Positions 6,101 through 22,868 of a stretch of DNA of 64,000 bases are shown here, piece by piece. Numbering within the stretch: the first letter of the stretch is position 1; every line of letters begins with the position of its first letter. Below the pieces are notes generated by a model. The model worked only from the letters and a program-made list of their open reading frames with translations. It was not told the origin of the DNA and did no database searches. The position numbers were made by a program, and so were the translations under genes. Source of the stretch: a virus; the IMG/VR virus record IMGVR_UViG_3300021963_009201, positions 32,001 to 96,000 of that record. One strand, 5' to 3'.

Positions 6101-6758
6101 GCCCGCAAGCCGTAAAAAAGAAATAGCCTTGGATGAATATACTGATATTTTGACATATGTTAAGAACATGCATTTGTCTGCTGCGGCCGAATCATCTGGG
6201 AATCAAGATTTAGCTGCGCAATTCATGAATGAAGCTAAACAAACAATGTATGGCGCAGATATATATCAAGGTAATCTTTCTCAGATAGCGCAAGCAATAC
6301 CAAAAAGGAAAAGGGAGCATTTTAAAGCAATGTTGGCTGCTCCTGTCGAAGAGCGTAAGCGAATACTTGATACTTCCGGAAGATTGGAACGCAGAATTTA
6401 TCAGGCCGCATGGGGAATGCCCGTAGAGAAGAGGCCAGACTTGGAAGAGTATTTCTCCGAAAGGGAACTACCTGAAGCTGGCTGGGAAGGATACAACCCT
6501 TCAACCTCCATGGATCAAATTAAAGTAAAGATTGGTCAAAGCATGGGTTTGGATTTATCAGAAATGGGTTACTATCCACAACAGATTAAGGAAGCTAATT
6601 TAGTTAATGCTTCCTACCCATCCTTCCGTTCCAACACCACAGGGACTGCTCAGAGGTTGCGTGAATTGATGAGAGCGCAAAATATTCAAGGGGATGTTAT
6701 TCCCGTGTTGACACCTTACGCCGGAGATCGGATTGAGTTACAGGCAGGGTTGAGGTAA
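120..6758 (+). CDS. Tape-measure-like / ejected virion protein (2212 aa)
   Basis: GTG start with AGGAG SD at 109-113. Very long, Gly/Ala-rich and largely helical-looking, with hydrophobic segments (LPIVAGGTALL; FLAATTMGFVGSLFG...IGAFIGGSAGFAAG). Heads the tail/baseplate operon. Confidence 0.6.
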   Translation: MIRDQGPIYNLGYGVNSRSLPRWEGSEEEQRGANPNSGVISKMLNKNPAMKFVAASAATMLVGAVATSVVRGSGVKLFSKLEDINKPWASQMISDMKSVREQLDAFQGVTRSYGQGDPLPGQLYGRKILDNGSTAIDTGEVNKTSSYFITRDERLKALRTGRTPPAAWSMADEIQSRLVASARRMPYELPAFYLAHKTVVNPLMGGEQDPKKKVNWFNPLDVVSDFFVESAKMATTMMLPFEAGTAASKQGWRRFMTYGDDLAQPTASQQTFRTGVLSMKALLGQVGADAVDVTNKVLNFSSRSTGALSAGLNAAAGTEKGLVQYFHSIRHGTTDWAQLSAVQKAKNLVTNASLMDAAPGPFKGFTTGLRAADQEYKKILASQEAYKQFLSLGPRGFDSVAGNPVTAARKNFFAKKLETLGVLQTSSNPYGSMKEALSEHLSKTSHGMQSTVREWGLFKHGRPALTPSANTGIKNGTFYKNAIDGEYTRLLKSRLMRGPGGLDQKSADAFAASFRVASPKSGAVDDALSLTQRIKPHGKGELGGNTEDEFFDNLLKHLRNRLPEGQVGPSARQLKDAIAKTDATFMDQGVRKILDAKVGAQFKAIEDQILPNIAKGQLKRLPTPYDSFNHSYLSPDEIAFMQKNVARLTGLNLVAQNGQPISHDLVISHLRSAKLDPENMSVLKGILIDKKVISKPWQRDGRNIFGLKRLTLDKSVEKGIFRNGQYDESDARDIISRIAAGDPLAGAGQYGLRGAWESQTGQVLDLSIIKRGITRAVNTFASDYHIPLLKFNPLQMANWVGSQEMRDKAMFQFIPGMSNQPFLRGAKETDDFYLWMKSGHRGSKGKVFSMSTGNGQPLINELQGTYKPNSATRGVVAKHARYAIKDEGFSPNGTGPNSTMGRIKKFFDVSEDAQDSIFGYFSRARNRRFDLNNRQTFARLLSDGQIPAKGGGSLTLQQAMQDSVAFEGAAKGFIAEMGAANLSDDVVNALKNARTAAGEEFAFTKALSYDVRGGGAQFLPDEVVSLTSLKSSGQLEEFGQLISSGDKALMGSLTQEQRRVLQSAKSAYIDRYLKNAYGPGYWDKVVGKGTSSRLDAYKRDLAKYLTVRQNTLNNQEFGEQLPELLTQIQRLKGTGAFNASQATEARAALMSIQYDLTAASTYARSNTTYQNLRGAIDRFVADAPVLGTQRVLQEISSGKLGTSGGLLGRVQPILRSRLGASSYDYDGIVFNPFASDTLLTPTFSSTFLPSQGGNPFRALKSVSGVSTYSDPQSFSGASVIQSHLISRLNKPFSALGIGVDPTANYKGALDLYARGLVGKRVLPIVAGGTALLTADRTIGGYANGKDQYGDRVYSPFFLGKAADAYVGMGSIFAGITPGGETSEDYKKRMETGEVPIRAGRWWALGNTPFKGGRIQYYRPNWYRRLKSGYTYTDQTYGTPMERALYGYDFSPLRAIDPYRFERKHYYDRPYPETGEYFTGPWGPLTSALNMTVGKVLKPTKMMHEQEVATGLAKYAPVGDAGAYIPPTTQFALNSVGSGSGFSYGGTTMGSTTVGVGGARITGFSSTVKTNAPTTGSTGGSVGLTRSFNARLQQAGQYSLSTGSVQAAQMVANINQQYAQAAYSPAYGTVKQEGLMDPRIIAGAPPISRSSLKFQSSQLAYEAQELAGIYGFAFGGIRRELGLGTQDYSPDRPVLASAGKAYGSTRAFWDLNIGGVGDFPLPIEGNMSNLEFSEIARRFIPKERKDVQYVNPIKNDMGIMYPWLPGSDYFINFKEGDPYTHVPEGEMRLPGKGYERFHRLNSDATGKYGLVDQFKVLGDVAPWSQEYRELDSVLDKMNLGSRQREIIQTTREQVEAKKVTNEFTPYKHTYNNDPTDSLLKNVVGRVKEKIEHSDTYFNTKFLQKRTAVEDWERDNVYGATFPEWQNPIDDFLQPMMNKSTQRGPFLAATTMGFVGSLFGKGPKAKAIGAFIGGSAGFAAGSYGKAYEAITGRQFMPASRKKEIALDEYTDILTYVKNMHLSAAAESSGNQDLAAQFMNEAKQTMYGADIYQGNLSQIAQAIPKRKREHFKAMLAAPVEERKRILDTSGRLERRIYQAAWGMPVEKRPDLEEYFSERELPEAGWEGYNPSTSMDQIKVKIGQSMGLDLSEMGYYPQQIKEANLVNASYPSFRSNTTGTAQRLRELMRAQNIQGDVIPVLTPYAGDRIELQAGLR

Positions 6759-9700
6759 TGGTAGATTATAGCGATTTTGACCCAAGGATTTTACGTCAGA
6801 CACTATCTAAGATTAGTCAAAAGTATCCAACTTTTCAGTTCGATTTTCAAAACAATGTACCAACTATTCGTGTTGGTTCTGAAACTTATAATACCCCAGC
6901 GGAAGCGCTTGAGTATATTAAAAAAATTAATTTAACCCAATATGACGTATTTGACTCAACAATACCAAGCTATCTTAAGTCGGGGCAAGGTGCAAATAAT
7001 TTCTTAATGCTAGAGGAGTTATCTGAAACACTTGGCGTGCGCATAGAGCGCTTAGGCATGAAGTCGGCAAGCGTTAAGCAGATTGAAGCTATTAATGAAG
7101 TCTTTTCTACCGGAATGGATAGAGAAGGGCTTTTCTACGCAAAGAACGATAATGTTACAGGTTTAATATTTCATCAAAATGGTAAAAAATTAAAATTAAA
7201 TGAAATCCTAGATTTACTAGAAAACAAAGGTATCCATTTTGATGTTAGCCAAAAAACTTTTAAGCGTTTACGATTCTTGGGTAATGATTATAAGTTTAGT
7301 GCTTCTGGCCTAGATTTAAACGCTTACTTTTTTGAAGCCGCAAAGACGCAACGTGGCATGGATTTAATGAACAAGGCTGGTTATACTTTTTCTGATGGCG
7401 GATACAAGGTAGCTTCAAGTAGGCGTATAGGAGATATGAGCAACCTTGTCGGGAACGTAAGTGCCGAGTATTCTGGTCTGCCATCTGAAATGTCTATCAA
7501 AACGCAAAAAAATGTCTTAAAAGCATATAAGGAGTTAAACCTTGGCGGTGCCTTAAACACTATTCAAGATATATCGTCCTTAAGCGATTCAGACGTAACT
7601 AGGTATATGCTTCAATTAAGTAGTGATGAGATATTAGAGTCAGGTAAGTACATTGATTCGCTAAATATGGTGAGGCGCGCATTCGACGGCGCAGTTTACG
7701 CTAGGTCAAGCTTGGCTGGCAAGGTTGCTGAGCAGGCTATGCAAAGAGCCGCAAAAATGACTCAAGATATGAGTGACGACATCAAATCGGGCCGTCTGAT
7801 AGAAGGTAGTGTTGAGCACAAGTCGGCACTAAGAAAAATTGCTGCAACAAAAAGAAGTGCCGCAGAACTTGACCCAATAGTGAAGCATGGTGGTGTCTTC
7901 AATGTGAGGATAATGGGCTTCAATGACGTAAGTGCGGAAGATGAATTTGTAAATGCGATTTTTGGAGAAAATGTATCAAAAAAAGGCTTCTCGGGCCAGG
8001 TTAAAGGTAATGTTTACTTTGAGCCAGATAAACAGTTTGAAGAAGCGCTTATGTCACAGATGAAGGGTTACAACCAAGATCTTGTTGAGTATAGGGGTAA
8101 GCTTTACTCGATGGACGAAATGATAGCTACCCATAAAAACCTTGGTTTAGGGACAGTTATTACGGACGCCGGTATGTCAGGTCGGAATAGAAAACTTGTA
8201 CTAGATGAAATAGAACGCAAAGGTGGGACGGTTCTAAGTCCACGCTCAATAGATGTTGTCACCTCTAAGGAGGCTAGAACAGTAGAGGTTGGTTTCAGGC
8301 AGGGTAGCGCAATGGCCAACAGGGGCGCAGCTCTATCGATGGAGGTGCAAGCTTCTGGCACTAAAGTTTTTTCTGAAGCCCAGTCATTTTTTGCCGATTT
8401 TGAACTTTATGATATGGACGCAATACGTAGAACTAACATGCAATACGTCCAAAAGCAAATTGATTATGTTAAGACTGATAAGATATTAGACGACTATGCA
8501 AGATTTAGGACTACAGGGGAAAGCTCCGGTATACTTCGGCAGCTAGTAGATCAAGCTGACGGCATCCCTGGCGAAGCTAGTACTGTTAGGGCACAACAGT
8601 TATTGGACATGCTTGATCAGGGTATAGCGCCGTCGAAAAATCCGCTTTTTGCACAAATGTATACAAGTGCGGTTAATGAGTTTAATCCTCGTAAAGATAT
8701 GTTCCATCTTCTAATGCCAAACGTTTACCAGGCGCAATTCACTAATGAGCTTGGAAGGTCGTCTCAGGTAACGCGTGGTAGTATTTCTTATAAGAAAAAT
8801 CTTGGTTTCATACTTAACGATTTAGATTATGATAAATATTACAATGCATTTGGCGGTCCTGACTTTGACGATTTGCTCAGATCTCATCTAAAATGGGATC
8901 GTGGATCAGATTCTTTAATTGCAATAATGAAAAGAACGCCAAGTGCCTTAGGTGAAATAGGTGTTTTTAGCGTAGATCAAAATGATCAATTAATGGATGA
9001 GGTACTCAAGAATGCTGCTGAAGTAGACGATGCGATAAAGGGTCACATCGATAGCGTAAAATTGCTTGATGCTAAAATAAATATTAAAAGCTCTTTACAA
9101 GCAAGCGCTAATTCGGCGACTGGTGTAACTGGCGCAAATGCAATGCAAAACTTAAAAAGTTTATCAGCAGTTTCTGACATTGTTGCTAGCCCAGAAGTTG
9201 ACGCGCAAAGACTCGCTTCAATTATGGATGAAATAGATACTTTGGGCAGCCCAACAGATGATTCACTTCGCTATATTAACGATGCAATTGATTCCTTGGG
9301 AATAGGTGGTCAAACAGTTGAGGACCTAGAAGCAGAAAAAGCATTGTTACGTGGTGGTACAAGAAAAGATATTTTAAGAGATTATTTCGAGCGAACACAT
9401 AGCGCTATGGAATCTTCTGAAATAAATAAGATAAGGAATAGGAGTTTAGCTTTATCTGATGAAGCTTTGCAGGGAATAGCTAAATATGGTTCTGTTGATG
9501 AGCTGCTGGCAAATAGAATGTCTAGAATGAGCAACCAATTGATCACCGGTATTGGTGATGATTTTGGTTCCTTAACAGATGAGTCGATTGAGGCTCTTAC
9601 TAAAAGTTTTGGTGTTCTTGGCGAATATTCGAATCTCCGTATGGTCTTAGACTCCATGAAGCGAGTAAGTGACGAATTAGGTAACGCGCCAAATTTCGGT

Positions 9701-11083
9701 GATGACGCCATAAAAATATTAAGACAAGAAGATGTAATTGATGCTTTAACTAAAGAAGGCGGGGCACTCGCGGAGGAGATTCGCGGCATTAATGACAATA
9801 TTGTAAGCTTTATATCGGATTACTTACTGCAAGGCGGGAAGATAGATAAGTTTGTTATAGACAATGAATTTGGGGAAAAGACAAGACTTAGTAAAGAGCA
9901 TGTAAATAGGATTAATCAAAAACTTATACAAAGTGGCAGAACTTTAGACGAGTTTACTGTGGAGGGTCCGCTCACGCAACGCGCACAAGCCGCATCAAGG
10001 ATTATGGAAGATATTGGAGATCAATATCGGATGATGAGGAGAGACATAGGTTTAGTTGATGGTTTAAAAAATCAACTTTTTGATTTAGATATAGAACGCG
10101 AAGCTGACGAGTTGATGACAATCGCTCGTGAAACTTACAAGGTTGATGACATTAGTTTCAGGTCAGCTTCGGCCTTAAATGACGCTATGGACTTGTTCGG
10201 TGAAATCCCAGATTTTAACGAAGTTTCAGATAGGGTCGGAAGAGCTCAAACTGAGTTTTTTAGGACCTTTACAGAAAGGTACGGGACAAGGTTAGATGAT
10301 GAAACTTTAGAGATTTCTGAACGCGGCCAAAAAGTGCTTGGTTCAATGATAAAGAGGCATAGCCTAACACCTTTAGGTGAGGGTTCTGGTAGTCTTTTTG
10401 GCGGCAATCTTAGTGGCGTTTTTAATAGCACACTACAATGGTATGACAATCTTGGTAGGGGAAATGTAGCAGGGGTTTCGGGCCAGCTAACGGTAGACAA
10501 TAAACTTGGTGCGATGCTAGAGGAAATTGATTCATACGATCGCCCGCAAGCTGTTTCAGAAGCAATTGATGCTGCAACCGGAGATATAGGTTCGGGACAG
10601 AGATCATTGATCAGATCCCGCGCTGCACGCAGGGCTTCAGAAGGTGTTTCGGATTTTGCTTCAAACACTAAAACAAAACTTCCTAAGATTTTAAGCCAGG
10701 AAGGATTAAACCTATTTAAGAATCAAACTTTCAAGAGGGGTGCGATAGCACTTGGTGGGTTGATGACATTTTCTGCTATATATAGGAAAATGAAAGACAG
10801 GACCCCCGAAGACATGCAGGGCCCACCAATGCTCCCCGGTGGCTCTTTTTATGACAATAATGCTGGCATGTACAGTCAGCAAATAATTAATAGTCCACAA
10901 AACAACCAAGGTGGCGGTACTACATATAAGATAAGGGCTTCAGGTAGTTTTGACGTAGATGCTTTATCTGGCGATATGGAAAACTTAACGGGTGCTCAAG
11001 TAAGGTCTAATAAATACGAGTCTCGCGGCTATCAGAATAAAAGCTCTAATATCGAACGTGTTATAAACGATTCTTTTAGGTGA
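6758..11083 (+). CDS. Putative divergent single-subunit two-barrel (double-psi beta-barrel) RNA polymerase, YonO/cellular-RdRP-like, possibly virion-packaged (1441 aa)
   Basis: Colinear motifs: AFDG (D310), FNVR...VKG (R384, K416), GGPDFDD (D702/D704/D705), KRTP (R726), LGEYSN (954-959), VIDALTK (993-999). Coupled to the previous gene by a TAATG overlap. Motif comparison by eye only. Confidence 0.55.
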   Translation: MVDYSDFDPRILRQTLSKISQKYPTFQFDFQNNVPTIRVGSETYNTPAEALEYIKKINLTQYDVFDSTIPSYLKSGQGANNFLMLEELSETLGVRIERLGMKSASVKQIEAINEVFSTGMDREGLFYAKNDNVTGLIFHQNGKKLKLNEILDLLENKGIHFDVSQKTFKRLRFLGNDYKFSASGLDLNAYFFEAAKTQRGMDLMNKAGYTFSDGGYKVASSRRIGDMSNLVGNVSAEYSGLPSEMSIKTQKNVLKAYKELNLGGALNTIQDISSLSDSDVTRYMLQLSSDEILESGKYIDSLNMVRRAFDGAVYARSSLAGKVAEQAMQRAAKMTQDMSDDIKSGRLIEGSVEHKSALRKIAATKRSAAELDPIVKHGGVFNVRIMGFNDVSAEDEFVNAIFGENVSKKGFSGQVKGNVYFEPDKQFEEALMSQMKGYNQDLVEYRGKLYSMDEMIATHKNLGLGTVITDAGMSGRNRKLVLDEIERKGGTVLSPRSIDVVTSKEARTVEVGFRQGSAMANRGAALSMEVQASGTKVFSEAQSFFADFELYDMDAIRRTNMQYVQKQIDYVKTDKILDDYARFRTTGESSGILRQLVDQADGIPGEASTVRAQQLLDMLDQGIAPSKNPLFAQMYTSAVNEFNPRKDMFHLLMPNVYQAQFTNELGRSSQVTRGSISYKKNLGFILNDLDYDKYYNAFGGPDFDDLLRSHLKWDRGSDSLIAIMKRTPSALGEIGVFSVDQNDQLMDEVLKNAAEVDDAIKGHIDSVKLLDAKINIKSSLQASANSATGVTGANAMQNLKSLSAVSDIVASPEVDAQRLASIMDEIDTLGSPTDDSLRYINDAIDSLGIGGQTVEDLEAEKALLRGGTRKDILRDYFERTHSAMESSEINKIRNRSLALSDEALQGIAKYGSVDELLANRMSRMSNQLITGIGDDFGSLTDESIEALTKSFGVLGEYSNLRMVLDSMKRVSDELGNAPNFGDDAIKILRQEDVIDALTKEGGALAEEIRGINDNIVSFISDYLLQGGKIDKFVIDNEFGEKTRLSKEHVNRINQKLIQSGRTLDEFTVEGPLTQRAQAASRIMEDIGDQYRMMRRDIGLVDGLKNQLFDLDIEREADELMTIARETYKVDDISFRSASALNDAMDLFGEIPDFNEVSDRVGRAQTEFFRTFTERYGTRLDDETLEISERGQKVLGSMIKRHSLTPLGEGSGSLFGGNLSGVFNSTLQWYDNLGRGNVAGVSGQLTVDNKLGAMLEEIDSYDRPQAVSEAIDAATGDIGSGQRSLIRSRAARRASEGVSDFASNTKTKLPKILSQEGLNLFKNQTFKRGAIALGGLMTFSAIYRKMKDRTPEDMQGPPMLPGGSFYDNNAGMYSQQIINSPQNNQGGGTTYKIRASGSFDVDALSGDMENLTGAQVRSNKYESRGYQNKSSNIERVINDSFR

Positions 11084-11087
11084 TATA

Positions 11088-11525
11088 ATGTTACAGAACC
11101 AATTAAATAAATATAAAAACGCAGTCGGTAAACCAAATGTTGGTTCAAAAATTTTTTCAAATGAACTTCCAAGGGTCCAGGAAATGTCGCGAAATTCTGC
11201 TAATTCTGGCTCTGTTAGGAATTTTGCTATCACTAAACAAAATAGCGCCCAGATTTCGGAAAGTATTATGGCTAGCCGTGGGCCTATGTCTAATGGCTCT
11301 GCTGCAGGGTTTAAGGGTGGAAAATCTGCACACTTAGAGATAAACGGCGGGGGTTACAGTGGCGCTAGTAGAAGGTTTCATTCGGTTGGGGGGATAGATT
11401 CGGTTGGAACTGGAATTATTCCTGCTAAAAAGATGAGAAAAGCAGTTACTAGAGATGTAGGTCGACTTTCCGAGACCTCTATGTCTAGGATGTCGAAGTT
11501 AAAAGTCTTAAATAGATTGGTGTAA
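11088..11525 (+). CDS. Small basic S/G/R/K-rich hypothetical protein (145 aa)
   Basis: ORF exactly fills the gap between two large genes; low complexity and basic, likely disordered. Confidence 0.7.
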   Translation: MLQNQLNKYKNAVGKPNVGSKIFSNELPRVQEMSRNSANSGSVRNFAITKQNSAQISESIMASRGPMSNGSAAGFKGGKSAHLEINGGGYSGASRRFHSVGGIDSVGTGIIPAKKMRKAVTRDVGRLSETSMSRMSKLKVLNRLV

Positions 11526-11526
11526 A

Positions 11527-14500
11527 TTGTCTGAATACAGTGCTGAAGATGTAATTGATGTCCTGATTATTGCGTTTGAATTTCCTCCTAGTGACGTTTA
11601 TGGGCCTATGGAGCGATACCTGCTTTCTATAGGTAAGGTGTGGATTCAGAGTGAGGATCCAATTGGCGCATCTATTAAGCTTACAGAAACCCAGGCGCTT
11701 AATGCTGTAAAGCATTTCTTAAAGAATAGAGAAGTAGTAGCAGGTGGAACCTCGGATGGTTCAGACTACGATAGTTCCTTACCTTACGACGAAGAAGTGG
11801 TAAAGAAAGCCTTAAGCGAGGCTAACAGGACTTCTCTAAGTGGACAAAGTTCAGATTCAATTAAACGAATTATACAAAATTTAGATGATTTATTTGGCTT
11901 TGGTGTTATTCTGAGGGAGAAAGAATCAATTGAAGGCATAGTATCTTTCCTACAGAGTCCTGAAGGAATAGGAAATTTTTCAAAACTTTCATATGACGCA
12001 AGGGTTGCCCTCAACAACTTACTGAGCTTAAGAGATAATGGAGATTTCCATTCGAAAAGACTTTATAACTTGGCGCTTTCTGTTCTACCCCAGCTTAATA
12101 GGCTTTTAGATTCTTATGTTGATCTTCAAAAAAAGGAAGAGCAGTACGTAAAAGATAATGGCGTAGATCCGACTACACTATTCGCCAACTCTTTTATGTC
12201 GGTTTTCAGTGAAAAACCGTTGCAGATGGCGCTTTTTTATAAGGAAAATACTCAAAGAAGAATTAGTGAAGCATTTGCGCAACAATTCCAAAGGCCAAAC
12301 AATGATCCGCAGCCCGTACAGCCTTGGGAAATGAGAATTGGCGGGTCAAAGTTTTTCGTGCCACCAATTGATGTGAAAGTTTCCCAATTTTTTAAAACTG
12401 GCAGCTTAACGGGTGGAGCTATACGTCAAGCTTCATCACCAAAGTTTAATTCGGGCCACAGCGAAACCGCCATACAAACAACTATCTATTTCCCTAGTTT
12501 AGAGTCAATATGGGGAATTATAACGAGTGAAGAAAAACCAGAAGTATTTTTAAATTTTGATGACATTAATAAAACGAGCGATAAAGATGTAGACTATTTC
12601 CTTTCATCGTTAAGGGGCTTAATAGCTCAATTTAAATATGCGCCATTCCTTCCTGTCCGGAATCAATACTTAAATCAAGCATGGGGGATTACTGGCGTTA
12701 CGCTCAACAGTATGACTATATCTACTGTAGAAAATTATCCTTTCTGTGTTGCTGTAACGCTTAATATGATGAAGTTTAACCATAAAGTTTACCTTCCAAT
12801 GGTTGAAGATTTTAATCAGGCGGTCCACTGGGGCAGGTTTAGGCAGTACATGGGCAGGGCCGCTATGGCAATGCAAAATTCTTATAATCTAGGATTTTTA
12901 ACTGAGAGTTTGTTTGGCGACATTTGGGATAAAATTCCTTTTATAAATAGAGACAAACCAAAACCAGATCAAGATACCTTTGATACATCGGACGTATCTT
13001 TTTCTAGGCCAACGAAAGAAGGTTGGGCAAAAGATCCTACTAGAATTAAGTTCTACTACCCGTCAAAAACACCAATGGAGATTTTTGCACCAGATGACTC
13101 TATGTTTAGGCAAGAGCGGGAAGATGAAACTGTTGGTAGTTCTGATTACGAAAGAGATAAATCCGCATGGGAGTTGCTCCTTGGTAAGCTAGGTATTGAC
13201 GTTGACGTATACCCAGAAAGCGTTTATGACAACGTAAAAAACTACTCTCAAAGATTTACAACTTACCAAAACGAATGGACATACCTGGGCCAGTATCTAA
13301 AGTTTAATAGTCTCGTTGTCTTAAATATGACTCAGGATAAATTAATCAAATACCTGAACGAAAGAATATCTACCTTAGAAAAAGAGGGTACGATTAAAAA
13401 TGACGCAGACAAAAATAATTATACTTCAGCAATCGTGCAACGTTGGTACGATTTTATGTTCGGTGGATTTAAAGACACTGTATTCTATAGGAAGCTTTTA
13501 GAAAATACCCAATACAGAAATGGCAGTTTTACCATTAACGAGTGGGACGTCCCGATGGAAGAAATGGCGTTTGACGCTAAAAGCGTTTTCGTACAAGGTA
13601 TCTCTGTATCGCTTTCTAATAACTTTGCGAAACACCAAGTACAACTCCAGGATGAGCCTACTTATCAACATATTGGCGGCGGTGATAATAGAGTCGATAT
13701 ATCAATGATCGTTGTAGGTGAAGATAATCTTATCAGAATTCGCAGGATGTTTGATAAAATTGGTGGACTAGCAAGGCTAGAGCACGCCCACGGTGTGCTT
13801 GGTTTCCTTGGTGTTAAAAATGAACTAACCGCACTTGCCGGTATGAAGTATCTAATGCCGCTGACTTATGAGGTTGACACTATACCTGGTTACCCACGCG
13901 TATATAATGTTAGGTTGTCTTTTATAGACTTTGACATTTTTCAGCAGAAAAGAGAAAAACTCTCTTCTGATCTCCAGGTTGGGCTCAAAGACCTTTTTGG
14001 TAAGCGCAACCCATTCCTCAGGGTAAAGCAAGTCTGGAGCAGGTTTAACGCCTATCCGGATTTCCCTCTTACAATTAGGGACGAAAAAGACGACAAAGTT
14101 ATTGGGACGATTGATCCAGATTTTTATTTCCGGGCTTTTACTACATTTGATGATGATTTAACGTATTGGGGGAGTCTTCCAAAAGGTGAAGAAAGCCCGA
14201 TTGCATCAATGAACTCTGATGGAACTTTTCAGATTAACCCAAAGAAGGATGATGTAACTGCAAAATTAGCACAAGCTTCAGGAGAGGTAAAAACTGAACA
14301 GTATACGGTTAACAAGAAAAATACTGTATCGACCTACCCATTAGAACTGTACTTTAATATGCTAACTACTGGTGACGGTCAGGATACGAGTGCAATCGTT
14401 AAGTTAGCAAACGCTGGTGAGCTTATAGTTGGGACCCAACAGCAAAACGAAGACCCTAAGTTCCCAACTACAGGGAAACCAGTAAAGATGACAGAAGACA

Positions 14501-17500
14501 CCGCTGTCGCTACACAAACTGAACCATCAATTGCTGGGTTAACGCCTGGAGCGCAGATACAAAACCCTTACGCTAATGCTACAAATGACCCCTCCACTCA
14601 ATATGAGTTAATCATGAATGACGCAAAGTACCGCGACATTAACGGTAGGATGATTAGGGCATTCCCAACCTACATGTTGTGGCTCATAGATGAGGGCGGC
14701 AGGTTTGGCGGTGTAAAGTTGTTTGATAATTTTTATGGTCTTCAATCAGTTGTTGATTTTTCCATTAATCGTTCTGAGGATGTGCTTGGCGATACGCTCG
14801 TGCTTCGATTGTCAAATCTTTATTCAAAATTGTCGACACAATATAAGGGCTTTGTTAAGAGGCAGGATGGAACTGAAAATATTGTTTTAGATGACGATAA
14901 TGGAAATACAATAGAATCAGTCGCAGATATTCCTGAGTATTTAATACAAACTCAAGAGAATATTAACAGCGGTATGGACGATACCTATATCGTTGAATTA
15001 GACAGCATCAGATTGAAGCCTGGGGTTCGTGTACATATGCGTATGGGTTACGGCGCTAACCCAAATTCTCTAGAGACTGTTTTTAATGGTGTAATAACAC
15101 AGGTTCAGGCTGGGGATATTGTAGAGGTTATTGCACAATCAGACGCGATCGAATTAAGTCAGTATATCAACACGACCAACAAGAAGGGTCACTCCGGTGA
15201 CATCGATGGGGCAATTGGTACGGGTTTTTGGCTTTCTGAGCCAAGGGACCTTATGGTTCGACTACTGTCTATGGGTTCATCTCGCTTCAAAGAGGGTTTT
15301 GCTCATGCTACTCGTGGGCAGATTTTCTCTGAAAGCAGATTTGGTATTCGTCATTTTGGAACAATTCTTTATGAAGCATTAACGCCAAACGAAAAAGAAA
15401 GGCACGACAAAAGGTATCAAGCAGTCACAAGCAGACTTCAGGCTGTTGCGGGGTCTGATAGCGTATCTAAAGTTCTTGGGGCATCTGCTGGTACCATCTA
15501 CGACACGACGGCGAGTGATAATGAGGATAGTAAAAACAGTTTAATAGGCGGAAGTTTCAGCGGGTTCTTAGGGCAAGGTGCTGTGCGGACTAGCACCGAT
15601 GAAAGCGGGAAGGTAAGCATGCCACTACTTGGCCTTATGCAGAGTATGTGGACTAATTTCTTTACAAAAAGAGATTTTGAAATTTATAAAAGGAATATTT
15701 ATCCAGGCAACGGAACTGGTGTAGCCCAGTATCTCGGTGGGGATCTATTGGATTCTGGCCCAGTTTTACTTGAGGCTGCAGGTAGCCAGGCCGCAACTGA
15801 CACTTTCTTTAACAAGGATGCTAAGAGCATTTTCAGTCAGTTTAAGAGTGGGGAGCCAGGAAAAGACTCAAGGGATCAAGTTATCCAAAACACTATACTA
15901 AACCTTTCGCTTAGTGGTGAACGAATTGAGGATCAAGTGAGTCCGCAGAATAACGCGGCGCCAAGTAATTCTGATCCCAATGCGCCAGCAAATCAGGGTG
16001 CAAGTGGTCGCGACCCTTCTAGCGTTACGGCCGCTACCTTGCTTCTAGGGTCTGTTGGGGAAGCCGTCTTGATGAAAAGGGGCGCGCTAAAAAACAATCC
16101 ACTTTTACAGGCTCTTGGACTGATACAAGGTGGGGAAGCAGACTCTGACTTAAATGGTTTTGATGAGGTATCCTTTAGGGCCCAAACCTACATGAAGACT
16201 GTTTGGGATATGTTTAAGTTATGTGCGGCACTACTTCCCAACTACATCGTAGCGGTCCGGCCTTTCGAGGATAGGTCAACGGTCTTTTACGGTAAACCTC
16301 ATTGGCTGTATACCTCCGGAGTGATACCGCTTTCTACAGGTGTGCCGAAGGACGATGATAAGGTAAAACCAGAAGGGCCAGACGCAGAGCTAGAGAGAAT
16401 AATGAGGGAAGCAACAAATCTTGCTAATCCTTTGGCGGATTTAGAAAACCAAATGAAGTTTGTTAAGGATATTTCTTCATCAAATCCATTCACAAGTTTT
16501 ACTGGAACTCAAGCACCAGGGACAACTAATACTCCTGATTCATCCAGCGAAGTCATGACGCTTCCACTGGAGTCGGGCGGTGCAAAAATTCCAATTAGGT
16601 CCGGTAAAGTTGTAATGGGCAAACATTTAGAAGGTTATAACTATAATGCACCAGAATCGAACCTAAGCGATGCGATAAGTCGTATGACCATTTCGGAAAA
16701 AGCAGAAATAGTTACCGAGTACGCTACAGCGCAAAAGGATGAACTGGCAAAAAATAGTTCAAGAGATCCATTAACTGGGGAATTTTCGCAAGAGTACATA
16801 AGAAGAATGAATGCCCTTGACGAAATTCTAAAGAATGCAATTGACGAAGAAGAAGAGAAAATTGACGACTTCATTAAAGATCCAGTCAATTCTGGGATAA
16901 GAGGAAGATTTTTATCGGATGCTAGTTCAGTACATATAGAGCTACCCCAACTGCCAGACGTCCACAAATATGCAAATTTTAGAGCTGGAAGTTTATTCGT
17001 CGGTTTTGAAAATGGCACCCCACAAATCACCCCTGAAGGTGAACAGTGGTATATAAGAATGCGTTGGCCTTACATAAATTGGCAAGATTACCTTAAAAGG
17101 CAATGGGAAAGCCCCGAATCTGGTACTGGCGATCCAAGTAAATATTGGGGTAAAAAAGTTGCAGTATCTTTACCTGATTCTGGCAAGGTGGTCGTATGCT
17201 ACGCCATAGATGGCGGTCCTATGGATCCGGCTTTTAGGGCTGAAGTTTCTCCAGATGTTTATTACGCTTTAGATTTAGCAGGATATCCACAGAAAGATTG
17301 CTATTTTGGTTTTGTAGATGACAATGTAAGACTTGGTCCGGTTGGTGGGTCGTTAAGCACAGAGACTGGACGTAGACTTGATGTGTCAAGTATACCAGTT
17401 CCAACAAGAGCAATAGTTGATGGCAGGTCTTACGAAACAATAGTTGACCCTGATCAGGCTTTTGAACGACTAACATCGGACACTAATGCAGAAACACTTT

Positions 17501-20500
17501 TTGGTGAGCAATACTACTTTATAAATTCATTCTTGTATGGCTGGCTTGCTGGTGGCGGAAATAATAACCCTAGGGCGTCAGGCTATTACGGGAACTTCGA
17601 CGATGCAAACAAGGAAAACGACGCCCAGTTTGCCGATAAGTATATCTCCCTTTTAGATAACGGAATAAAAGGTAGTATAAGGGCTGACGATAATGCTATT
17701 GGTGCCTTTGATATTGTTGGCGAAATAGCGAGGCGAATTTACGATGTGGACTACAATGAGCGTAGACTTGAACTATTGAAAGATTCGGACATAGCCAGTA
17801 ATTACCTTCGTGATACTGGCTTAACTTTCGACAAGCTAGTAGAAAAAGCCAATGCCAATTACGAAGCATTCAACAACGCCCGAAAATTTTATGGAGATTA
17901 TAAAGGGGATACTGAAACGACCGCAGAAGAAATTTGGGATATATTCAGAAAACAATGGCATATCAGAACTGATAAGGAATATCTAGAGGTTAAGGAAGCG
18001 GCAATTGAATTTATTAACCAAATCGGCTTACCTATAAATGATCCAAATAATGCTTTAGGTTTTGACGAAAATTGGTATGATGGTTCTACATCGGGTCAAG
18101 GTTTTGATAGCAGCGCTGAAAGTGAAGCTGTTGACAAGGTTATATTTAGCACTAATATGACAAAGATTGTTAATAATTTTAAAATGCTTATGTGGCGTCT
18201 CCCCTACGCCAGGGCTTGGCTAGTTATTACTACGGGAAGAACGCCAGATACTGGTGAGTTACTTGCCGCTAGTGTTGGGGCTTCAGTCGTTACCCTCAAC
18301 CCAGTTCCAGCAGTTGCTGCGTTAGCTACTGATGCTTTAGATGATAATCCTTTTGACTTTAAAAATAGTGATATTACAAAGCTATGGAGATGGTATTTAG
18401 GGCTTAATGCAGATGGGTATAAGAAAAACGATACTGCTGTTTCTGCGTTAATAAATGCGGCAGCATTAGATAATGAAAATAGCTTTAATGGTTTTAGTTC
18501 ACAGATTAATCTTTCCCCAGATGCAAAAACCGGCGCAAGTATATTTGCAAATGAAGCTTTAGTTGGTAGATTTATCGAGGCCTTAAAACACTACAAGAGG
18601 GTCGGTCTTAAGGGTAATGGAGCTCAGCAGGCAATTGAGAGAATTGGTCAAGTTTGGAACCAAACAATAGGAGCATTCTTTACATTAGTTAGTAGCGCAT
18701 TAAGCGGAGTTGTGGCAACATTCAGACTATCCCTAATGCAGATGGGCTATGGCATGGGAATGCTTGGAGCTATGCAACAGCAAGCTAATATCTTAAATCG
18801 TGCTTTAAATGACTCTATTTATTATAGTCTCGGCGAACCTGGTTCTGCGATATGGCTTGCGGACAATCCATTCACTAGAGAGTATGGGGAACCGGTTATT
18901 GAGATTAGGGAGCCATTCCAAAGATTCCATTACATTAATTCTTTTCAAGATATTATTGATAATGGGATTCAAGAAAAACTTGATAATATACCAACTGTGG
19001 TCACAGCTAGTTCGGATGGCAAGTACCCTGTTACGGTTTATTTCGATAAGGGAACTTCTCCCGAGAAGCAGTTTGAAGTGGGAATTGAGACAGGACTTTT
19101 TTGGGACAATGCAAGAGGCAGTGGTTTTTTCGGTTTCCTGCATCCTCTCTTGCACCCGTTTGAAACAATGCGCGGTTTAGCTAAAAGCGCAAGCGGCTCA
19201 TCTGACGAAATCCTTTCGAGAAGAGTTGGGCTATCGTATCTCAAAGAATCCCTAAAAGACATTTATGGAGGCGAAGTTGTAATCATTGGTAGGGCCGATA
19301 TACGTCCGCACGACCTTGTGTACCTCGCCGATACGTACGAGCGGATGTACGGAATATTCGAGGTAGAGGCTGTTACACACCATTTTACTAGCGACATGGG
19401 TTTTGTGACAGCAATTACACCAAACGCTGTTGTTACAGTAAATGACCCTGCGCGCTGGGTGTACCAATCCTGGATCTGGGGTCTTTTTGGGGTGCAGAAT
19501 ACAAGGAATCATGTAAGGCACCTTCTCTCGGTAACGGCCGATAGGTCTTCAAGAGTTTACAACGATGTTCTTGCTTTCGTAGACAGTAATGGGGAAGTTG
19601 ACATGAGCGGCTTCGCCGAATCGATTGAGGACACAATCCGCGGTAGTGTCCAGTTTACTGGTGGAAATTCTGGGCTAGTAAAAGATATAGCTTCTCATGC
19701 CGCCGCAGGCTACGCGGTTCCTAGTGGTTCTTCTTACAGTATAGCTCCAGATAGTTGGGAGCAAAGCGCCCAAAATATAGGAAGCCTTTTTTCAAGTCCG
19801 GGAGCAACTTTTGCGTCTTGGATTCCCGGAGTGAATAAGTTGCTTGACGTAGCTTGGGAGGGTTGGACATGGGTTAGGGATAATCTCCTTGACCAGCATG
19901 GGTGCTATATACAGTATTTAAGCAAAGATGGGCAACCAATGGATGCAGGCCTCAGTTTCAATCAGGGTGTCGCGGTTGGTCATCATCACTCGATTAATTT
20001 ATTACCTGGAATACTTGGGGTTGAAGTTGACACGACCGAAAATGGTCATAGGCGTATTACAATTAACGACCTTATGGGTTCACTTGGTTGGAGTGAGTTA
20101 GAGATATCCAGTATTCAGCGGCAGGTTAGCTGGTGGAACAATTATTGGAATGCGCGCGTGCTAGATTATGCTGGCAAGGGACCAGACCCTGTTACTCTTA
20201 CTCGCCCTAATGCCTATTTAGCAAAGGTTATAGCTATGAGTACCGACGATGATGACGGTAATGGCATAGTCGACGGCGATACGTTCTCTTGCCAAAAGCT
20301 AGACGCCGATGGCAACCTAACTGGGTCTACATTTAAGATTCGTTTAGCGGGTATTGATACTGCAGAGCTTGATTTCAAGCAAGATATCCAGAGAAATGAT
20401 TCGTCGCAAAAAGCCTATATTGCACGGCAATTTTTGGAGAAACGTTTGATTACGGATCAAGTAGCAAATGGCCTTGAGCCAATTGTCGCAGTTAGGGAGT

Positions 20501-20817
20501 CTATTGGTGCGGGTGTGGATGGAAGATTTGGTTCTAAGGATAAGTACGGCCGAACGCTTGCTGTCGTATTTCATAATGGTGATTACGACAAATTGGCATC
20601 AAGCGCCGAAAAAGAAAGGCAGAGAAGAGATTCTCTACTAAGAAACGCTTCTTCGTGGCCTTTGATTCCCTGGGATTCATTTACCGCAGATGGTAGGACT
20701 TACACTGTTAATTGGGAAATAGTTGTTTCTGGATTAGCTTATACAGATATGGGCGGAGTTAAGGCTGGGGACCCTGACGCTAGGTATAGTTCGGGAAACT
20801 TTACTGGGGGTAATTGA
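11527..20817 (+). CDS. Multidomain distal-tail/baseplate hub protein with RlpA-like DPBB domain and C-terminal staphylococcal-nuclease (SNase) domain (3096 aa)
   Basis: TTG start. Hub-like segments TVFNGVITQV...VEVIAQS and GEVVIIGRADIRPHDLVYL...FEVEAVTHHF. RlpA-like segment YIRMRWPY...KVVVCYAIDGGP...EVSP (~17041-17320). SNase motifs DGDT, RLAGIDTAE, DKYGR (~20212-20750). Confidence 0.7.
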   Translation: MSEYSAEDVIDVLIIAFEFPPSDVYGPMERYLLSIGKVWIQSEDPIGASIKLTETQALNAVKHFLKNREVVAGGTSDGSDYDSSLPYDEEVVKKALSEANRTSLSGQSSDSIKRIIQNLDDLFGFGVILREKESIEGIVSFLQSPEGIGNFSKLSYDARVALNNLLSLRDNGDFHSKRLYNLALSVLPQLNRLLDSYVDLQKKEEQYVKDNGVDPTTLFANSFMSVFSEKPLQMALFYKENTQRRISEAFAQQFQRPNNDPQPVQPWEMRIGGSKFFVPPIDVKVSQFFKTGSLTGGAIRQASSPKFNSGHSETAIQTTIYFPSLESIWGIITSEEKPEVFLNFDDINKTSDKDVDYFLSSLRGLIAQFKYAPFLPVRNQYLNQAWGITGVTLNSMTISTVENYPFCVAVTLNMMKFNHKVYLPMVEDFNQAVHWGRFRQYMGRAAMAMQNSYNLGFLTESLFGDIWDKIPFINRDKPKPDQDTFDTSDVSFSRPTKEGWAKDPTRIKFYYPSKTPMEIFAPDDSMFRQEREDETVGSSDYERDKSAWELLLGKLGIDVDVYPESVYDNVKNYSQRFTTYQNEWTYLGQYLKFNSLVVLNMTQDKLIKYLNERISTLEKEGTIKNDADKNNYTSAIVQRWYDFMFGGFKDTVFYRKLLENTQYRNGSFTINEWDVPMEEMAFDAKSVFVQGISVSLSNNFAKHQVQLQDEPTYQHIGGGDNRVDISMIVVGEDNLIRIRRMFDKIGGLARLEHAHGVLGFLGVKNELTALAGMKYLMPLTYEVDTIPGYPRVYNVRLSFIDFDIFQQKREKLSSDLQVGLKDLFGKRNPFLRVKQVWSRFNAYPDFPLTIRDEKDDKVIGTIDPDFYFRAFTTFDDDLTYWGSLPKGEESPIASMNSDGTFQINPKKDDVTAKLAQASGEVKTEQYTVNKKNTVSTYPLELYFNMLTTGDGQDTSAIVKLANAGELIVGTQQQNEDPKFPTTGKPVKMTEDTAVATQTEPSIAGLTPGAQIQNPYANATNDPSTQYELIMNDAKYRDINGRMIRAFPTYMLWLIDEGGRFGGVKLFDNFYGLQSVVDFSINRSEDVLGDTLVLRLSNLYSKLSTQYKGFVKRQDGTENIVLDDDNGNTIESVADIPEYLIQTQENINSGMDDTYIVELDSIRLKPGVRVHMRMGYGANPNSLETVFNGVITQVQAGDIVEVIAQSDAIELSQYINTTNKKGHSGDIDGAIGTGFWLSEPRDLMVRLLSMGSSRFKEGFAHATRGQIFSESRFGIRHFGTILYEALTPNEKERHDKRYQAVTSRLQAVAGSDSVSKVLGASAGTIYDTTASDNEDSKNSLIGGSFSGFLGQGAVRTSTDESGKVSMPLLGLMQSMWTNFFTKRDFEIYKRNIYPGNGTGVAQYLGGDLLDSGPVLLEAAGSQAATDTFFNKDAKSIFSQFKSGEPGKDSRDQVIQNTILNLSLSGERIEDQVSPQNNAAPSNSDPNAPANQGASGRDPSSVTAATLLLGSVGEAVLMKRGALKNNPLLQALGLIQGGEADSDLNGFDEVSFRAQTYMKTVWDMFKLCAALLPNYIVAVRPFEDRSTVFYGKPHWLYTSGVIPLSTGVPKDDDKVKPEGPDAELERIMREATNLANPLADLENQMKFVKDISSSNPFTSFTGTQAPGTTNTPDSSSEVMTLPLESGGAKIPIRSGKVVMGKHLEGYNYNAPESNLSDAISRMTISEKAEIVTEYATAQKDELAKNSSRDPLTGEFSQEYIRRMNALDEILKNAIDEEEEKIDDFIKDPVNSGIRGRFLSDASSVHIELPQLPDVHKYANFRAGSLFVGFENGTPQITPEGEQWYIRMRWPYINWQDYLKRQWESPESGTGDPSKYWGKKVAVSLPDSGKVVVCYAIDGGPMDPAFRAEVSPDVYYALDLAGYPQKDCYFGFVDDNVRLGPVGGSLSTETGRRLDVSSIPVPTRAIVDGRSYETIVDPDQAFERLTSDTNAETLFGEQYYFINSFLYGWLAGGGNNNPRASGYYGNFDDANKENDAQFADKYISLLDNGIKGSIRADDNAIGAFDIVGEIARRIYDVDYNERRLELLKDSDIASNYLRDTGLTFDKLVEKANANYEAFNNARKFYGDYKGDTETTAEEIWDIFRKQWHIRTDKEYLEVKEAAIEFINQIGLPINDPNNALGFDENWYDGSTSGQGFDSSAESEAVDKVIFSTNMTKIVNNFKMLMWRLPYARAWLVITTGRTPDTGELLAASVGASVVTLNPVPAVAALATDALDDNPFDFKNSDITKLWRWYLGLNADGYKKNDTAVSALINAAALDNENSFNGFSSQINLSPDAKTGASIFANEALVGRFIEALKHYKRVGLKGNGAQQAIERIGQVWNQTIGAFFTLVSSALSGVVATFRLSLMQMGYGMGMLGAMQQQANILNRALNDSIYYSLGEPGSAIWLADNPFTREYGEPVIEIREPFQRFHYINSFQDIIDNGIQEKLDNIPTVVTASSDGKYPVTVYFDKGTSPEKQFEVGIETGLFWDNARGSGFFGFLHPLLHPFETMRGLAKSASGSSDEILSRRVGLSYLKESLKDIYGGEVVIIGRADIRPHDLVYLADTYERMYGIFEVEAVTHHFTSDMGFVTAITPNAVVTVNDPARWVYQSWIWGLFGVQNTRNHVRHLLSVTADRSSRVYNDVLAFVDSNGEVDMSGFAESIEDTIRGSVQFTGGNSGLVKDIASHAAAGYAVPSGSSYSIAPDSWEQSAQNIGSLFSSPGATFASWIPGVNKLLDVAWEGWTWVRDNLLDQHGCYIQYLSKDGQPMDAGLSFNQGVAVGHHHSINLLPGILGVEVDTTENGHRRITINDLMGSLGWSELEISSIQRQVSWWNNYWNARVLDYAGKGPDPVTLTRPNAYLAKVIAMSTDDDDGNGIVDGDTFSCQKLDADGNLTGSTFKIRLAGIDTAELDFKQDIQRNDSSQKAYIARQFLEKRLITDQVANGLEPIVAVRESIGAGVDGRFGSKDKYGRTLAVVFHNGDYDKLASSAEKERQRRDSLLRNASSWPLIPWDSFTADGRTYTVNWEIVVSGLAYTDMGGVKAGDPDARYSSGNFTGGN

Positions 20818-21728
20818 TGGCCCACTTTGATTTTTCTTTAAATGATTTCACTAATGAGAAAAATATCTCTAATGCCGTAATTAATAAGTCAAAAAATTAC
20901 ACACCAAATGGACAGGCTAAAGCGATAAAAACATCTTTTTCTCAACTTCCCTTAGACAAGCAAAGGCCTTTAACAACTACTAACGTTTCAGATATGCTCC
21001 AGGGCACAACGGTCTATAAGCCAATGGGTTTGATATACAATTCCTTTAATGATGTTTTGTCTAGGGATATACAGCTGGCAAGGAATGTGAAAGTTGGCGA
21101 TAGGTTGCTGTCTATGGATAAAGCCCATACAGGGCTGTTGCCTTACGATTCGAATAAGAGGGACGCTTCAATAGATATAGCTTCTAGCGTAAATGCCTTG
21201 ACAACCAGTGCGGGGTCAACTGGAACACCAGCAGCCGCAGACAATGGAACCACAACTTCTGCGGGAGGCCAAGGCTCTGGCCCCGGAACCGAGATATTTG
21301 TCCCGCCCGCTGGTAAATCGTGGCCTAAGGGCACACTTTCTATCGACGACGTTGCTAAACTAGTCATTGAAGTTGGAATTTCTGAAGACGCCCAAGCTGT
21401 ATTGGTAGCCATTTCTCATCGAGAGTCTAGCTTTAGGACTGGAGCCTATAATCCTGTTGGACTAGATAATTCTTGGGGTCTATGGCAGATTAATACTATT
21501 GACGGGGCAAGCCCGCAGTATCGACGTTATGACCTAACCGATCCTTATACAAATGCAAGAGTTATGGCTATCATGTCCGGTAGTGGGGCCAATCTGCATC
21601 CCTGGTATACCCAGCACGATGGCAGCAATGAACCTGGCTACAGTAGCGCATATAGTGTTCAAGACTTTTTGCCAGAAGCTATTGCCGCAGTTCAGAGGGT
21701 TAAGGCGCAGGGTTATAGGGCTGGGTAG
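20817..21728 (+). CDS. Lytic transglycosylase (SLT/lysozyme-like) with shared N-terminal MAHF domain (303 aa from ATG 20817)
   Basis: AISHRESS (catalytic Glu), GLWQIN, LTDPYTNAR...PW. ATG 20817 overlaps the upstream TGA and matches the paralog starts. Confidence 0.85.
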   Translation: MAHFDFSLNDFTNEKNISNAVINKSKNYTPNGQAKAIKTSFSQLPLDKQRPLTTTNVSDMLQGTTVYKPMGLIYNSFNDVLSRDIQLARNVKVGDRLLSMDKAHTGLLPYDSNKRDASIDIASSVNALTTSAGSTGTPAAADNGTTTSAGGQGSGPGTEIFVPPAGKSWPKGTLSIDDVAKLVIEVGISEDAQAVLVAISHRESSFRTGAYNPVGLDNSWGLWQINTIDGASPQYRRYDLTDPYTNARVMAIMSGSGANLHPWYTQHDGSNEPGYSSAYSVQDFLPEAIAAVQRVKAQGYRAG

Positions 21729-21759
21729 TCCAAATTGATACACAACCTGTTAATAACTA

Positions 21760-21767
21760 TTACTATA
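21760..21767 (+). promoter_or_regulatory. TTACTATA motif, candidate phage-specific promoter
   Basis: Intergenic; the same octamer occurs in the gaps at 23729 and 47760. Confidence 0.55.
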
Positions 21768-21850
21768 TCCAGTAGGGATTAGATGAATAAAGTAAAGAAC
21801 GTCAATATAAAAATTATTACATTTTCTTACTAAGATTGGCATAGAGACTG

Positions 21851-22855
21851 ATGGCCCACTTTGATTTTTCTTTAAATGATTTTACTAATGGGAAAAATAT
21901 TTCTAATGCTATTATTGGAGGAACTAAGAGTTACACGCCAACCGGAGAGGCAAAATGGTTGAGGACTACGTATTCCATGGTAGACGCAAAAGCTCAACAG
22001 TCTTTAACAACCGCGTCTGTTTCGGATATACTTCAGGGAAATTTGCTACTTAAACCTGTTGCCCTTAATTATACGCAGTTTAATGAAGTTACTTCTAGTA
22101 TATCGAAAGTCGCTAATACTACTAAAGTTCAAGATAAGGTTGGAGCGCTTGGTTATAGGAAATACCTTGCTGGATTCGACACGGTCGGCGCCGTAAATAG
22201 TCTTATTAATCTTAATATTAATACTACAACATCGCCTAATAGTATTACGCCAACATCTCCAAGCCCAACTGGTGCATCAAGTATCCGCCCTATTGCGGGC
22301 GGTTACTACCTAATTAACCACCCACCTGCAAGTCCGCAATTCCACGAAAGTAGGAATAACGGCCTTAGTGGCGGTGTGGTTTTGCACACCACCGAAGGTG
22401 GCGGAGGTTATCAGTCGGCGGAAGCAACGGCAGCCTTTATATCGCGCAGATCAGACCCTGGATCGTACCATTGCATAGTGGATTCCGAACCAAATACGGC
22501 TGTCTATATGATGCCAGACAATTATACAGCCTTTGGTGTAGCTACTCCCGGATTTAATAGTAGGTGCTGGAATATCGCAATAGCGGCAAATTCTGCAGAT
22601 TTGAACCCAAGTAGCCCAGAAACATTAACCGAAATCGACAATATGGGTAGAGAAATTGTTGCGTTCTGGGCTAGGAATAGTATAGACCCAACACAGGGTG
22701 TCAGGTTTGTCGGGAATGGAGTTAAAGATGGGCCAGGTCTTGCACATCACGGGGATGTTCAGCCGGGAGACAGGTCAGACGCATGGGCTCGCCGAGAAGA
22801 TAGGGAGCTTTTTGATGCTTTATTATTGCAGGCTATAGCTCGCCATGCTATTTAG
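21851..22855 (+). CDS. Amidase_2-type N-acetylmuramoyl-L-alanine amidase with shared N-terminal MAHF domain (334 aa)
   Basis: VVLHTTEG, GSYHCIVD, HHGDV...RSD Zn-amidase motifs. Confidence 0.8.
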   Translation: MAHFDFSLNDFTNGKNISNAIIGGTKSYTPTGEAKWLRTTYSMVDAKAQQSLTTASVSDILQGNLLLKPVALNYTQFNEVTSSISKVANTTKVQDKVGALGYRKYLAGFDTVGAVNSLINLNINTTTSPNSITPTSPSPTGASSIRPIAGGYYLINHPPASPQFHESRNNGLSGGVVLHTTEGGGGYQSAEATAAFISRRSDPGSYHCIVDSEPNTAVYMMPDNYTAFGVATPGFNSRCWNIAIAANSADLNPSSPETLTEIDNMGREIVAFWARNSIDPTQGVRFVGNGVKDGPGLAHHGDVQPGDRSDAWARREDRELFDALLLQAIARHAI

Positions 22856-22868
22856 GTAGGTTGATATA

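Follow-up and report, generated by a model that had tools for sequence, protein, structure and literature searches.

Why should a gene for a polymerase-like protein with an unusual active site lie within the tail module of a large phage, and what would its product do there? The question is raised by a 1441-aa open reading frame (ORF) in IMG/VR record IMGVR_UViG_3300021963_009201, a 190,033-bp phage genome (G000) of which positions 32,001–96,000 form the window analyzed here (64,000 nucleotides; coordinates refer to the window unless G000 is stated). A preliminary description, made from the sequence alone, had proposed a two-barrel RNA polymerase (RNAP) of virion-delivered or late type, in which the catalytic loop reads DxDD instead of DxDxD and the RxP motif follows the loop rather than preceding it. 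The evidence assembled below indicates that the product is probably an active, single-chain, DNA-dependent two-barrel RNAP of the QDE-1/YonO/gp66/gp96 kind that is delivered by the virion, a joint judgement that treats its components (fold, activity, DNA dependence, and delivery) as correlated.

Homologs of the ORF were obtained by phmmer against 50% clusters, which yielded 35 proteins of 1150–1550 aa, followed by the addition of close relatives and of loci from DNA-motif scans; the latter returned ∼135 loci, mostly chance, of which seven new ones passed the family hidden Markov model (HMM), and the metagenome scan gave only locus L029. In the resulting set of 45 tail-copy proteins (∼17–73% identity), 38 derive from phmmer without the motif scan, and the seven from motif scans are circular for the scanned motif. 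Because distant members are <20% identical and yet invariant at the catalytic positions, conservation falls on the six motif blocks singled out in the preliminary description, all of which were found at the residues given there (D310, R384, K416, D702/D704/D705, R726-T-P728, L954–N959, and E991–D995). K416, G699, D702, D704, D705, R726, P728, E733, and D995 are invariant in 45/45 tail proteins; besides K169 and R170 (see table), the near-invariant positions are G311 (44/44), E991 (44/45), D/E310 (43/44), R384, and N959 (both 42/45). A D/N-x-Q motif of the type found in RNA-dependent RNA polymerases (RdRPs) occurs additionally at residues 540–542. Both proposed departures proved real: GGxDxDD followed by RxP 22–28 residues after the first Asp is present in all 45 tail proteins and in all 23 early paralogs described below (68/68), the Asp cluster being invariant throughout; one family member reads DFDDD at the loop. 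Mapped by motif order onto QDE-1's active site (PMC9508822), R170, D310, R384, K416, R726-x-P728, D702/D704/D705, and D995 would be the counterparts of R671, D709, R738, K743, R962-x-P964, D1007/D1009/D1011, and D1116, respectively.

An AlphaFold model of ORF residues 300–1199 (model 1; predicted local distance difference test, pLDDT, 78.8) is without the first strand of the beta-type double-psi beta-barrel (DPBB-B), and a compact homolog ∼20% identical to the ORF, P0034, was therefore folded in its place (mcd6387e88b57; residues 40–545, pLDDT 90.3, predicted template modeling score 0.86). A VIA structure search of the P0034 model against 48,161 chains returned single-chain two-barrel RNAPs as all of the top five matches, the next unrelated match having Z 5.5; scores were Z 9.6 for ZmRDR2 (rmsd 3.8, 326 aligned), Z 9.3 for QDE-1 (rmsd 4.5, 357 aligned), Z 8.3 for P74-26 gp62, and Z 8.0 and 7.7 for gp96, and gp66 and PolD gave long but weak alignments (360 residues, Z 4.2–4.4, for gp66). 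Foldseek matched the same model to RDR2 (E 2.7e-5), QDE-1 (7e-5), and gp64 (5.8e-4). For model 1, helical-hairpin noise dominated both Foldseek and VIA and no PDB match reached E<0.001; its sole long alignments were to ZmRDR2, AtRDR2, and QDE-1 (345–388 residues, rmsd 4.5–4.8, Z 5.9–7.0), and those to RDR2 and QDE-1 extend through model residue 799, spanning the bridge and trigger helices. Judging from both models, the ORF almost certainly has the two-barrel polymerase fold that had been suggested for it, and in the alignments its Asp cluster falls on the catalytic loops of QDE-1, RDR2, gp64, gp96, gp66, and Rpb1. The P0034 model's N-terminal domain (residues 1–90) matched tail tube, Hcp, and baseplate proteins at Z 3.6–4.1, within noise, and is possibly a tail-docking domain.

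Neither Pfam, with its RdRP (PF05183) and YonO-like profiles included, nor PHROGs gave a relevant match for the ORF, four tail homologs, or two early copies; PDB sequence searches with the ORF, as a single sequence and as a profile, returned nothing useful; tblastn of a tail and an early copy against INPHARED found no relative among GenBank phages; and alignment-seeded locus and protein searches brought no new family members. Two unnamed Caudovirales proteins in BFVD, A0A6J5M9G6 (1141 aa) and A0A6J5NTF7 (851 aa), match the model at E ∼1e-11 and probably belong to the tail and early families as members already in public databases.

Structural evidence on strand order, which comprises alignment end points and DSSP strands, points to a re-ordered catalytic barrel. 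The beta′-type barrel (DPBB-A) has six strands in both models. Sequence-order alignments of the P0034 model stop at residues 470–478, just past the strand that follows the loop (partner end points: QDE-1 1019–1026, gp64 340, gp96 793, gp66 1377, and Rpb1 502–516), and leave over the RxP hairpin (476–496), as expected if that hairpin has moved behind the loop; the whole Rpb1 barrel (344–502) is spanned by 74 model residues, ∼59 of them matched. In the canonical order, seen in gp96, gp64, and 0305phi8-36 gp99, RxP lies 38–44 residues before DxDGD. With the GGxDxDD loop taking the catalytic position, the simplest order would be b1 b2 b5 helix loop b6 b3 b4. In the DPBB, b2 pairs with b5 and b6 with b3 as antiparallel neighbors; short hairpins could thus make both new connections, and RxP could remain beside the aspartates. 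Of the permuted barrel envisaged earlier, the re-ordering is supported, and its apparent form is a segment swap (b1 b2 b5 loop b6 b3 b4) and not a circular permutation; a simple circular permutation was ruled out, since a short hairpin alone lies between the loop's strand and the RxP strand, with b1-b2 upstream.

A scan of the genome's ORFs with the core HMM revealed a second copy (E 1.6e-21), located among small early-type genes. This paralog holds every motif, including the second DPBB-B lysine, which is an invariant K231 in 13 aligned early paralogs; its C-terminal end is a CxxC-CxxC pair, and it has 23 homologs. HHalign related the tail and early families at 99.5%, and in a quick tree their cores fell on the two sides of one branch (SH-like approximate likelihood ratio test 99). 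The pair co-occurs in 4/4 large records tested: on opposite strands in G000, in G001 (a 210-kb contig), and in G002 (a complete 231-kb phage with a third copy), and on separate contigs in the G005 bin. Because both copies have the same odd active site, it predates the duplication, and its retention in a paralog without a structural role argues against decay. Gene position suggests that the paralog is early and non-virion; given a tail copy and an early copy of the same build, the phage probably injects the tail enzyme to switch on the early one.

The gene's location within the tail module was correctly described: it sits between tube/chaperone genes and the hub. Upstream, a tail sheath gene is followed by three genes of tube type, a pair of chaperone-like genes, and a 2212-aa gene whose product is homologous to gp145, a virion protein of Bacillus phage 0305phi8-36; downstream come a small ORF, the 3096-aa protein in the hub position, the lysin genes, and baseplate J. 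This arrangement is kept in four distant homologous loci. The ORF has no Pfam domain and no transmembrane helix, and in every locus seen its gene and the 2212-aa gene are separate, with no gp96-type fusion to a tape measure protein (TMP). In 0305phi8-36 the same slot is filled by gp146, a virion protein by mass spectrometry whose tape-measure label comes mainly from its length. Both gp146 (L005:19284-26897) and the slot protein of Moorella phage MTATph1 (L004:18768-22697) carry a DEDDh-like exonuclease motif, in gp146 instead of this polymerase, which suggests that the slot is a place for exchangeable injected enzymes.

Only tail copies possess the C-terminal module, which is absent from the early paralog and is likely a virion-assembly tag. 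A predicted complex of this module with the upstream protein scored 0.41 versus 0.00 for the best control, a weak result (partner pLDDT 40–42; runs agreeing in at least 40% of contacts), and in the calibration of this score passes at ≤0.60 came from 7/80 solved and 2/110 mismatched pairs. The hydrophobic helix noted near the C-terminus is present (residues 1328–1342), but its hydrophobicity is moderate only (Kyte-Doolittle 19-mer 0.86; family best 0.9–1.6); it is hence not transmembrane, and a membrane anchor was ruled out. Virion delivery of the ORF product is very probable on this synteny and family evidence, and between the two options left by the preliminary description, virion-delivered and late, the early paralog and the gp146 slot in 0305phi8-36 favor the first.

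A ∼38-nt motif, consisting of a 6-bp inverted repeat, an 8-nt loop, and an A/T-rich tail, occurs in three copies (G000 160390, 160878, and 161283, minus strand) that are spread over consecutive intergenic gaps ending at the paralog, upstream of it and of two neighbors, and nowhere else in the genome (scores 55–60 vs. 15 for the next and 8 for shuffled sequence). It is also found upstream of the paralog in four relatives, with a compensatory change at two pairs and 97% paired, and its covariation exceeds 500/500 shuffles in sequences that are related to one another. A hairpin promoter, a dimer-binding site, and an RNA element are all plausible readings of the motif, which as candidate promoter of the tail enzyme is no more than a lead. 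Two tandem early-polymerase copies in related phages (L157:421-6506 and L158:4001-10035), ∼60–65% identical, each have their own hairpin motif. Between the small early genes, the intergenic gaps of L147:15200-17000, L157, and L158 contain modules resembling tRNA arms and pseudoknots in repeated copies, and a pistol ribozyme (Rfam RF02679, 59.7 bits) lies at G000 151996–152072 (minus strand), with a similar short repeat 487 nt away.

In the mechanism proposed, the polymerase would be made late, become part of the contractile tail via its C-terminal module, and enter the cell together with the DNA, whereupon it would transcribe a pre-early block that includes the 876-aa paralog. Catalysis would follow QDE-1: D702, D704, and D705 would hold Mg-A and Mg-B in a loop one Gly shorter, with D310 aiding metal B; R170, R384, and K416 would bind phosphates; R726-x-P728 would read the 2′-OH and the minor groove from a hairpin at the same barrel place, later in the chain; and D995 on the trigger helix would select ribose. 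Catalytic activity is very likely, and an active enzyme would, with still greater likelihood, synthesize RNA in a DNA-dependent manner. A fuller account is tentative and, taken whole, somewhat doubtful, namely that this widespread, undescribed, active lineage has a DPBB-A, the barrel that is conserved elsewhere from cellular RNAP to PolD, re-threaded by a non-circular segment swap (with one psi crossover lost), a DxDD metal site, and an ancient tail/early duplication, and that the injected enzyme starts at DNA-hairpin promoters upstream of its own paralog, like the N4 virion RNAP.

Several observations weigh against this account or parts of it. The Z-scores are middling (≤10), and the best model is of a ∼20%-identical homolog; one gp96 alignment (8h2n) and that to PolD continue to P0034-model residues 490–493, into the RxP hairpin. 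Each Asp of DxDxD is essential in QDE-1 (PMC9508822) and gp66 (10.1101/2020.03.07.982082), and no precedent was found for DxDD in two-metal catalysis within this fold. At the position of the second DPBB-B lysine (QDE-1 K767) the ORF has Thr508, with Arg507 beside it, and Lys is present in ∼19/45 tail copies by a by-eye count. The hairpin motif lies among the RNA-structure modules and is perhaps one of them. Finally, the family HMM does not detect gp146, and the C-terminal module compared with gp146 gave E 0.24, homology not being established, so that the packaging argument from the slot is positional only.

The foremost alternative, though improbable, is an active virion nucleotidyl-transferase with another role (priming, short/non-templated or RNA-templated synthesis, or DNA pulling by transcription), the short loop then reflecting changed chemistry. 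The non-canonical loop and the weakly kept second Lys of the tail copies would fit it, as would the closest structures, QDE-1 and RDR2, which take RNA templates; however, the ribose-selecting RxP and the trigger Asp are invariant, and the early paralog shares that loop and keeps the second Lys invariant, in agreement with the virion/non-virion transcription cascade already known. It is quite unlikely that the protein is a catalytically dead relic of a polymerase, kept as a structural component of the tail or as a tape measure: the DxDxD is broken, the slot is called tape measure in 0305phi8-36, residues 745–950 and 1000–1300 are helical and poorly conserved, and an ESM Atlas search led at best to weak TMP-like clusters and to nothing useful, but core conservation sits on active-site residues across <20%-identity homologs, and the non-structural early paralog keeps DxDD without a tail module, so the loop is not decay. 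About as unlikely as a relic is an active late RNAP that acts outside the virion, like SPbeta YonO; YonO-type late enzymes do exist and location alone is no proof of packaging, but the gene lies in the late tail block under translational coupling and would be expressed too late for the transcription of that block, a sigma factor and a separate early paralog are also encoded by the phage, and the C-terminal module is conserved in tail copies alone. Very unlikely is an active virion RNAP without the proposed re-threading, its RxP hairpin being a new appendage, or located at the opposite side of b6, and having acquired the Pro-gate role by convergence, a reading that takes its basis from the dependence of the re-threading on end points and DSSP only and from the 8h2n and PolD alignments but is opposed by a barrel of exactly six strands with no room for b3-b4 before the loop, by the compact span of the whole Rpb1 barrel, and by the resemblance of RxP..GE to RdRP RxP..GD.

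Table. Coordinates of the polymerase-like ORF, its segments, its neighbors, and its early paralog (window positions unless G000 is given).
Feature	Position	Strand	Basis
Single-chain two-barrel RNA polymerase-like protein, 1441 aa, probable virion copy	6758..11083	+	Motifs, family, models
K169-R170, putative duplex-binding helix; likely QDE-1 R671 counterpart by motif order	7262..7267	+	R 44/44, K 42/44
DPBB-B (beta-type), residues ∼186–532 with helical inserts; holds D310-G311, N382-x-R384, K416-G417	7313..8353	+	Models, conservation
DPBB-A (beta′-type), residues 654–740, six strands; proposed order b1 b2 b5 helix loop b6 b3 b4	8717..8977	+	DSSP, alignment end points
Catalytic loop GGPDFDD (G699–D705), DxDD in place of DxDxD	8852..8872	+	45/45; homolog loop aligns with DxDGD loops
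R726-x-P728...G732-E733, putative Pro-gate loop equivalent, C-terminal to Asp loop	8933..8956	+	45/45
Bridge-helix-like segment (LGxYxN, N959)	9614..9679	+	Conservation; model 1 aligns to RDR2/QDE-1 across region
Trigger-helix-like segment (E991, invariant D995; putative QDE-1 D1116 counterpart)	9725..9751	+	Conservation
C-terminal module: apolar helix, GPxLPGGxxY motif, small alpha/beta end; tail copies only; probable virion-assembly tag	10709..11083	+	Family comparison
Upstream virion protein, 2212 aa, homolog of 0305phi8-36 gp145, tape-measure region; stop overlaps ORF start codon	120..6758	+	Homology, synteny
ORF of 145 aa; similar small gene (121–149 aa) at this place in most homologous loci	11088..11525	+	Synteny
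Hub-position protein, 3096 aa, matches phrog_20474; gp147-type slot, described as T4 gp27-like hub	11527..20817	+	PHROG match
Paralog, 876 aa, with DxDD loop and delayed RxP, no tail module	G000 157657-160287 (= L147:11658-14288), outside window	-	Core HMM

Other features of the genome were recorded alongside. The hub-position protein ends with a nuclease-like domain (phrog_452, residues 2912–3021, E 2e-4); it is followed at 20814–23702 by three lysins (SLT, amidase, and NlpC/P60) that have a near-identical N-terminal segment in common, and a DNA-repair-type exonuclease gene stands directly after baseplate J, within the structural block (26029–27210). Near the terminase, a 1049-aa protein with an exonuclease domain (G000 175818–178967, plus strand; phrog_192, E 4e-08) is possibly another virion cargo, and a phage sigma factor (G000 100570–101421, plus strand; phrog_1740) may serve the host RNAP in late transcription. 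Host hints come from the 210-kb contig (L122), binned in an Iamiaceae (Acidimicrobiia) metagenome-assembled genome, a weak lead, and from another member in a Limnohabitans bin.

The closest precedent for a virion-delivered RNAP with an early partner is the pair gp96/gp64 of Thermus phage P23-45, which was absent from the systems first compared. The TMP-fused virion RNAP gp96 (8H2M/8H2N) and the non-virion gp64 (8F72) have the same single-chain two-barrel fold (Z 7.7–8.7), and gp96 transcribes pre-early genes including gp64 (PMC10770324). Shared with the present phage are a tail-module copy with an early paralog on the opposite strand, an ancient duplication, and a clustered motif upstream of the early copy; P23-45 is, however, a siphovirus, whereas the tail here is contractile, gp96 forms a fusion with a TMP of 5002 aa whereas the ORF is a separate 1441-aa gene, and gp96 and gp64 have the canonical RxP...DxDGD and no sequence similarity to the ORF. 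Neurospora QDE-1 and plant RDR2 (2J7N, 7Y7P, 7W84, and 7EU1; PMC9508822) are the best structural matches (Z 9–10, 326–365 residues), with the active-site counterparts listed above and the NxQ, LGxxxN, and trigger motifs, but they are eukaryotic RNA interference enzymes in which a DLDGD loop is preceded by RxP at a distance of 45 residues, and the K767 counterpart is variable in the tail family. The gp66 protein of crAss-like phage phi14:2 (6VR4; 10.1101/2020.03.07.982082) is likewise a single-chain RNAP packaged in the virion, and its non-standard loop, DFDID, needs refolding for catalysis, but it is a 2180-aa protein of a podovirus, is head-ejected, and keeps the DxDxD spacing. SPbeta YonO and 0305phi8-36 gp99 are also single-chain phage two-barrel RNAPs, and 0305phi8-36 has the same tail-module layout; both enzymes differ in being non-virion, and gp99 has the canonical order (RSP 529, DTDGD 573).

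The protein works, on this reading, like gp96/gp64 or gp66, yet it fails two defining motif tests. No paper describing the family was found in the literature searched, most subscription papers being outside reach, and its motifs are absent from the supplements examined of a viral two-barrel RNAP survey (PMC10770324), among which its 23 family alignments (Supplementary Data 3) were not included. The RxP-then-DxDxD barrel is treated as invariant, even as a filter in that survey, which selected for RxP 20–100 residues before the Asp triad; the tail/early family fails both halves of this filter (the DxDxD triad and the upstream RxP) and escapes Pfam and PHROGs as well, so that an entire branch of phage transcription enzymes would have been missed. 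The family is testable without the phage, as the 876-aa paralog has no tail module and a motif is available as candidate promoter. If these enzymes are active, the RNAP active site would tolerate a re-threaded barrel and a shortened metal loop, a point of relevance to the interconversion of DPBB, RIFT, and related barrels and to what the third Asp requires, and tail-delivered RNAPs, with their virion/non-virion cascade, would extend from one siphovirus group to large myophages.

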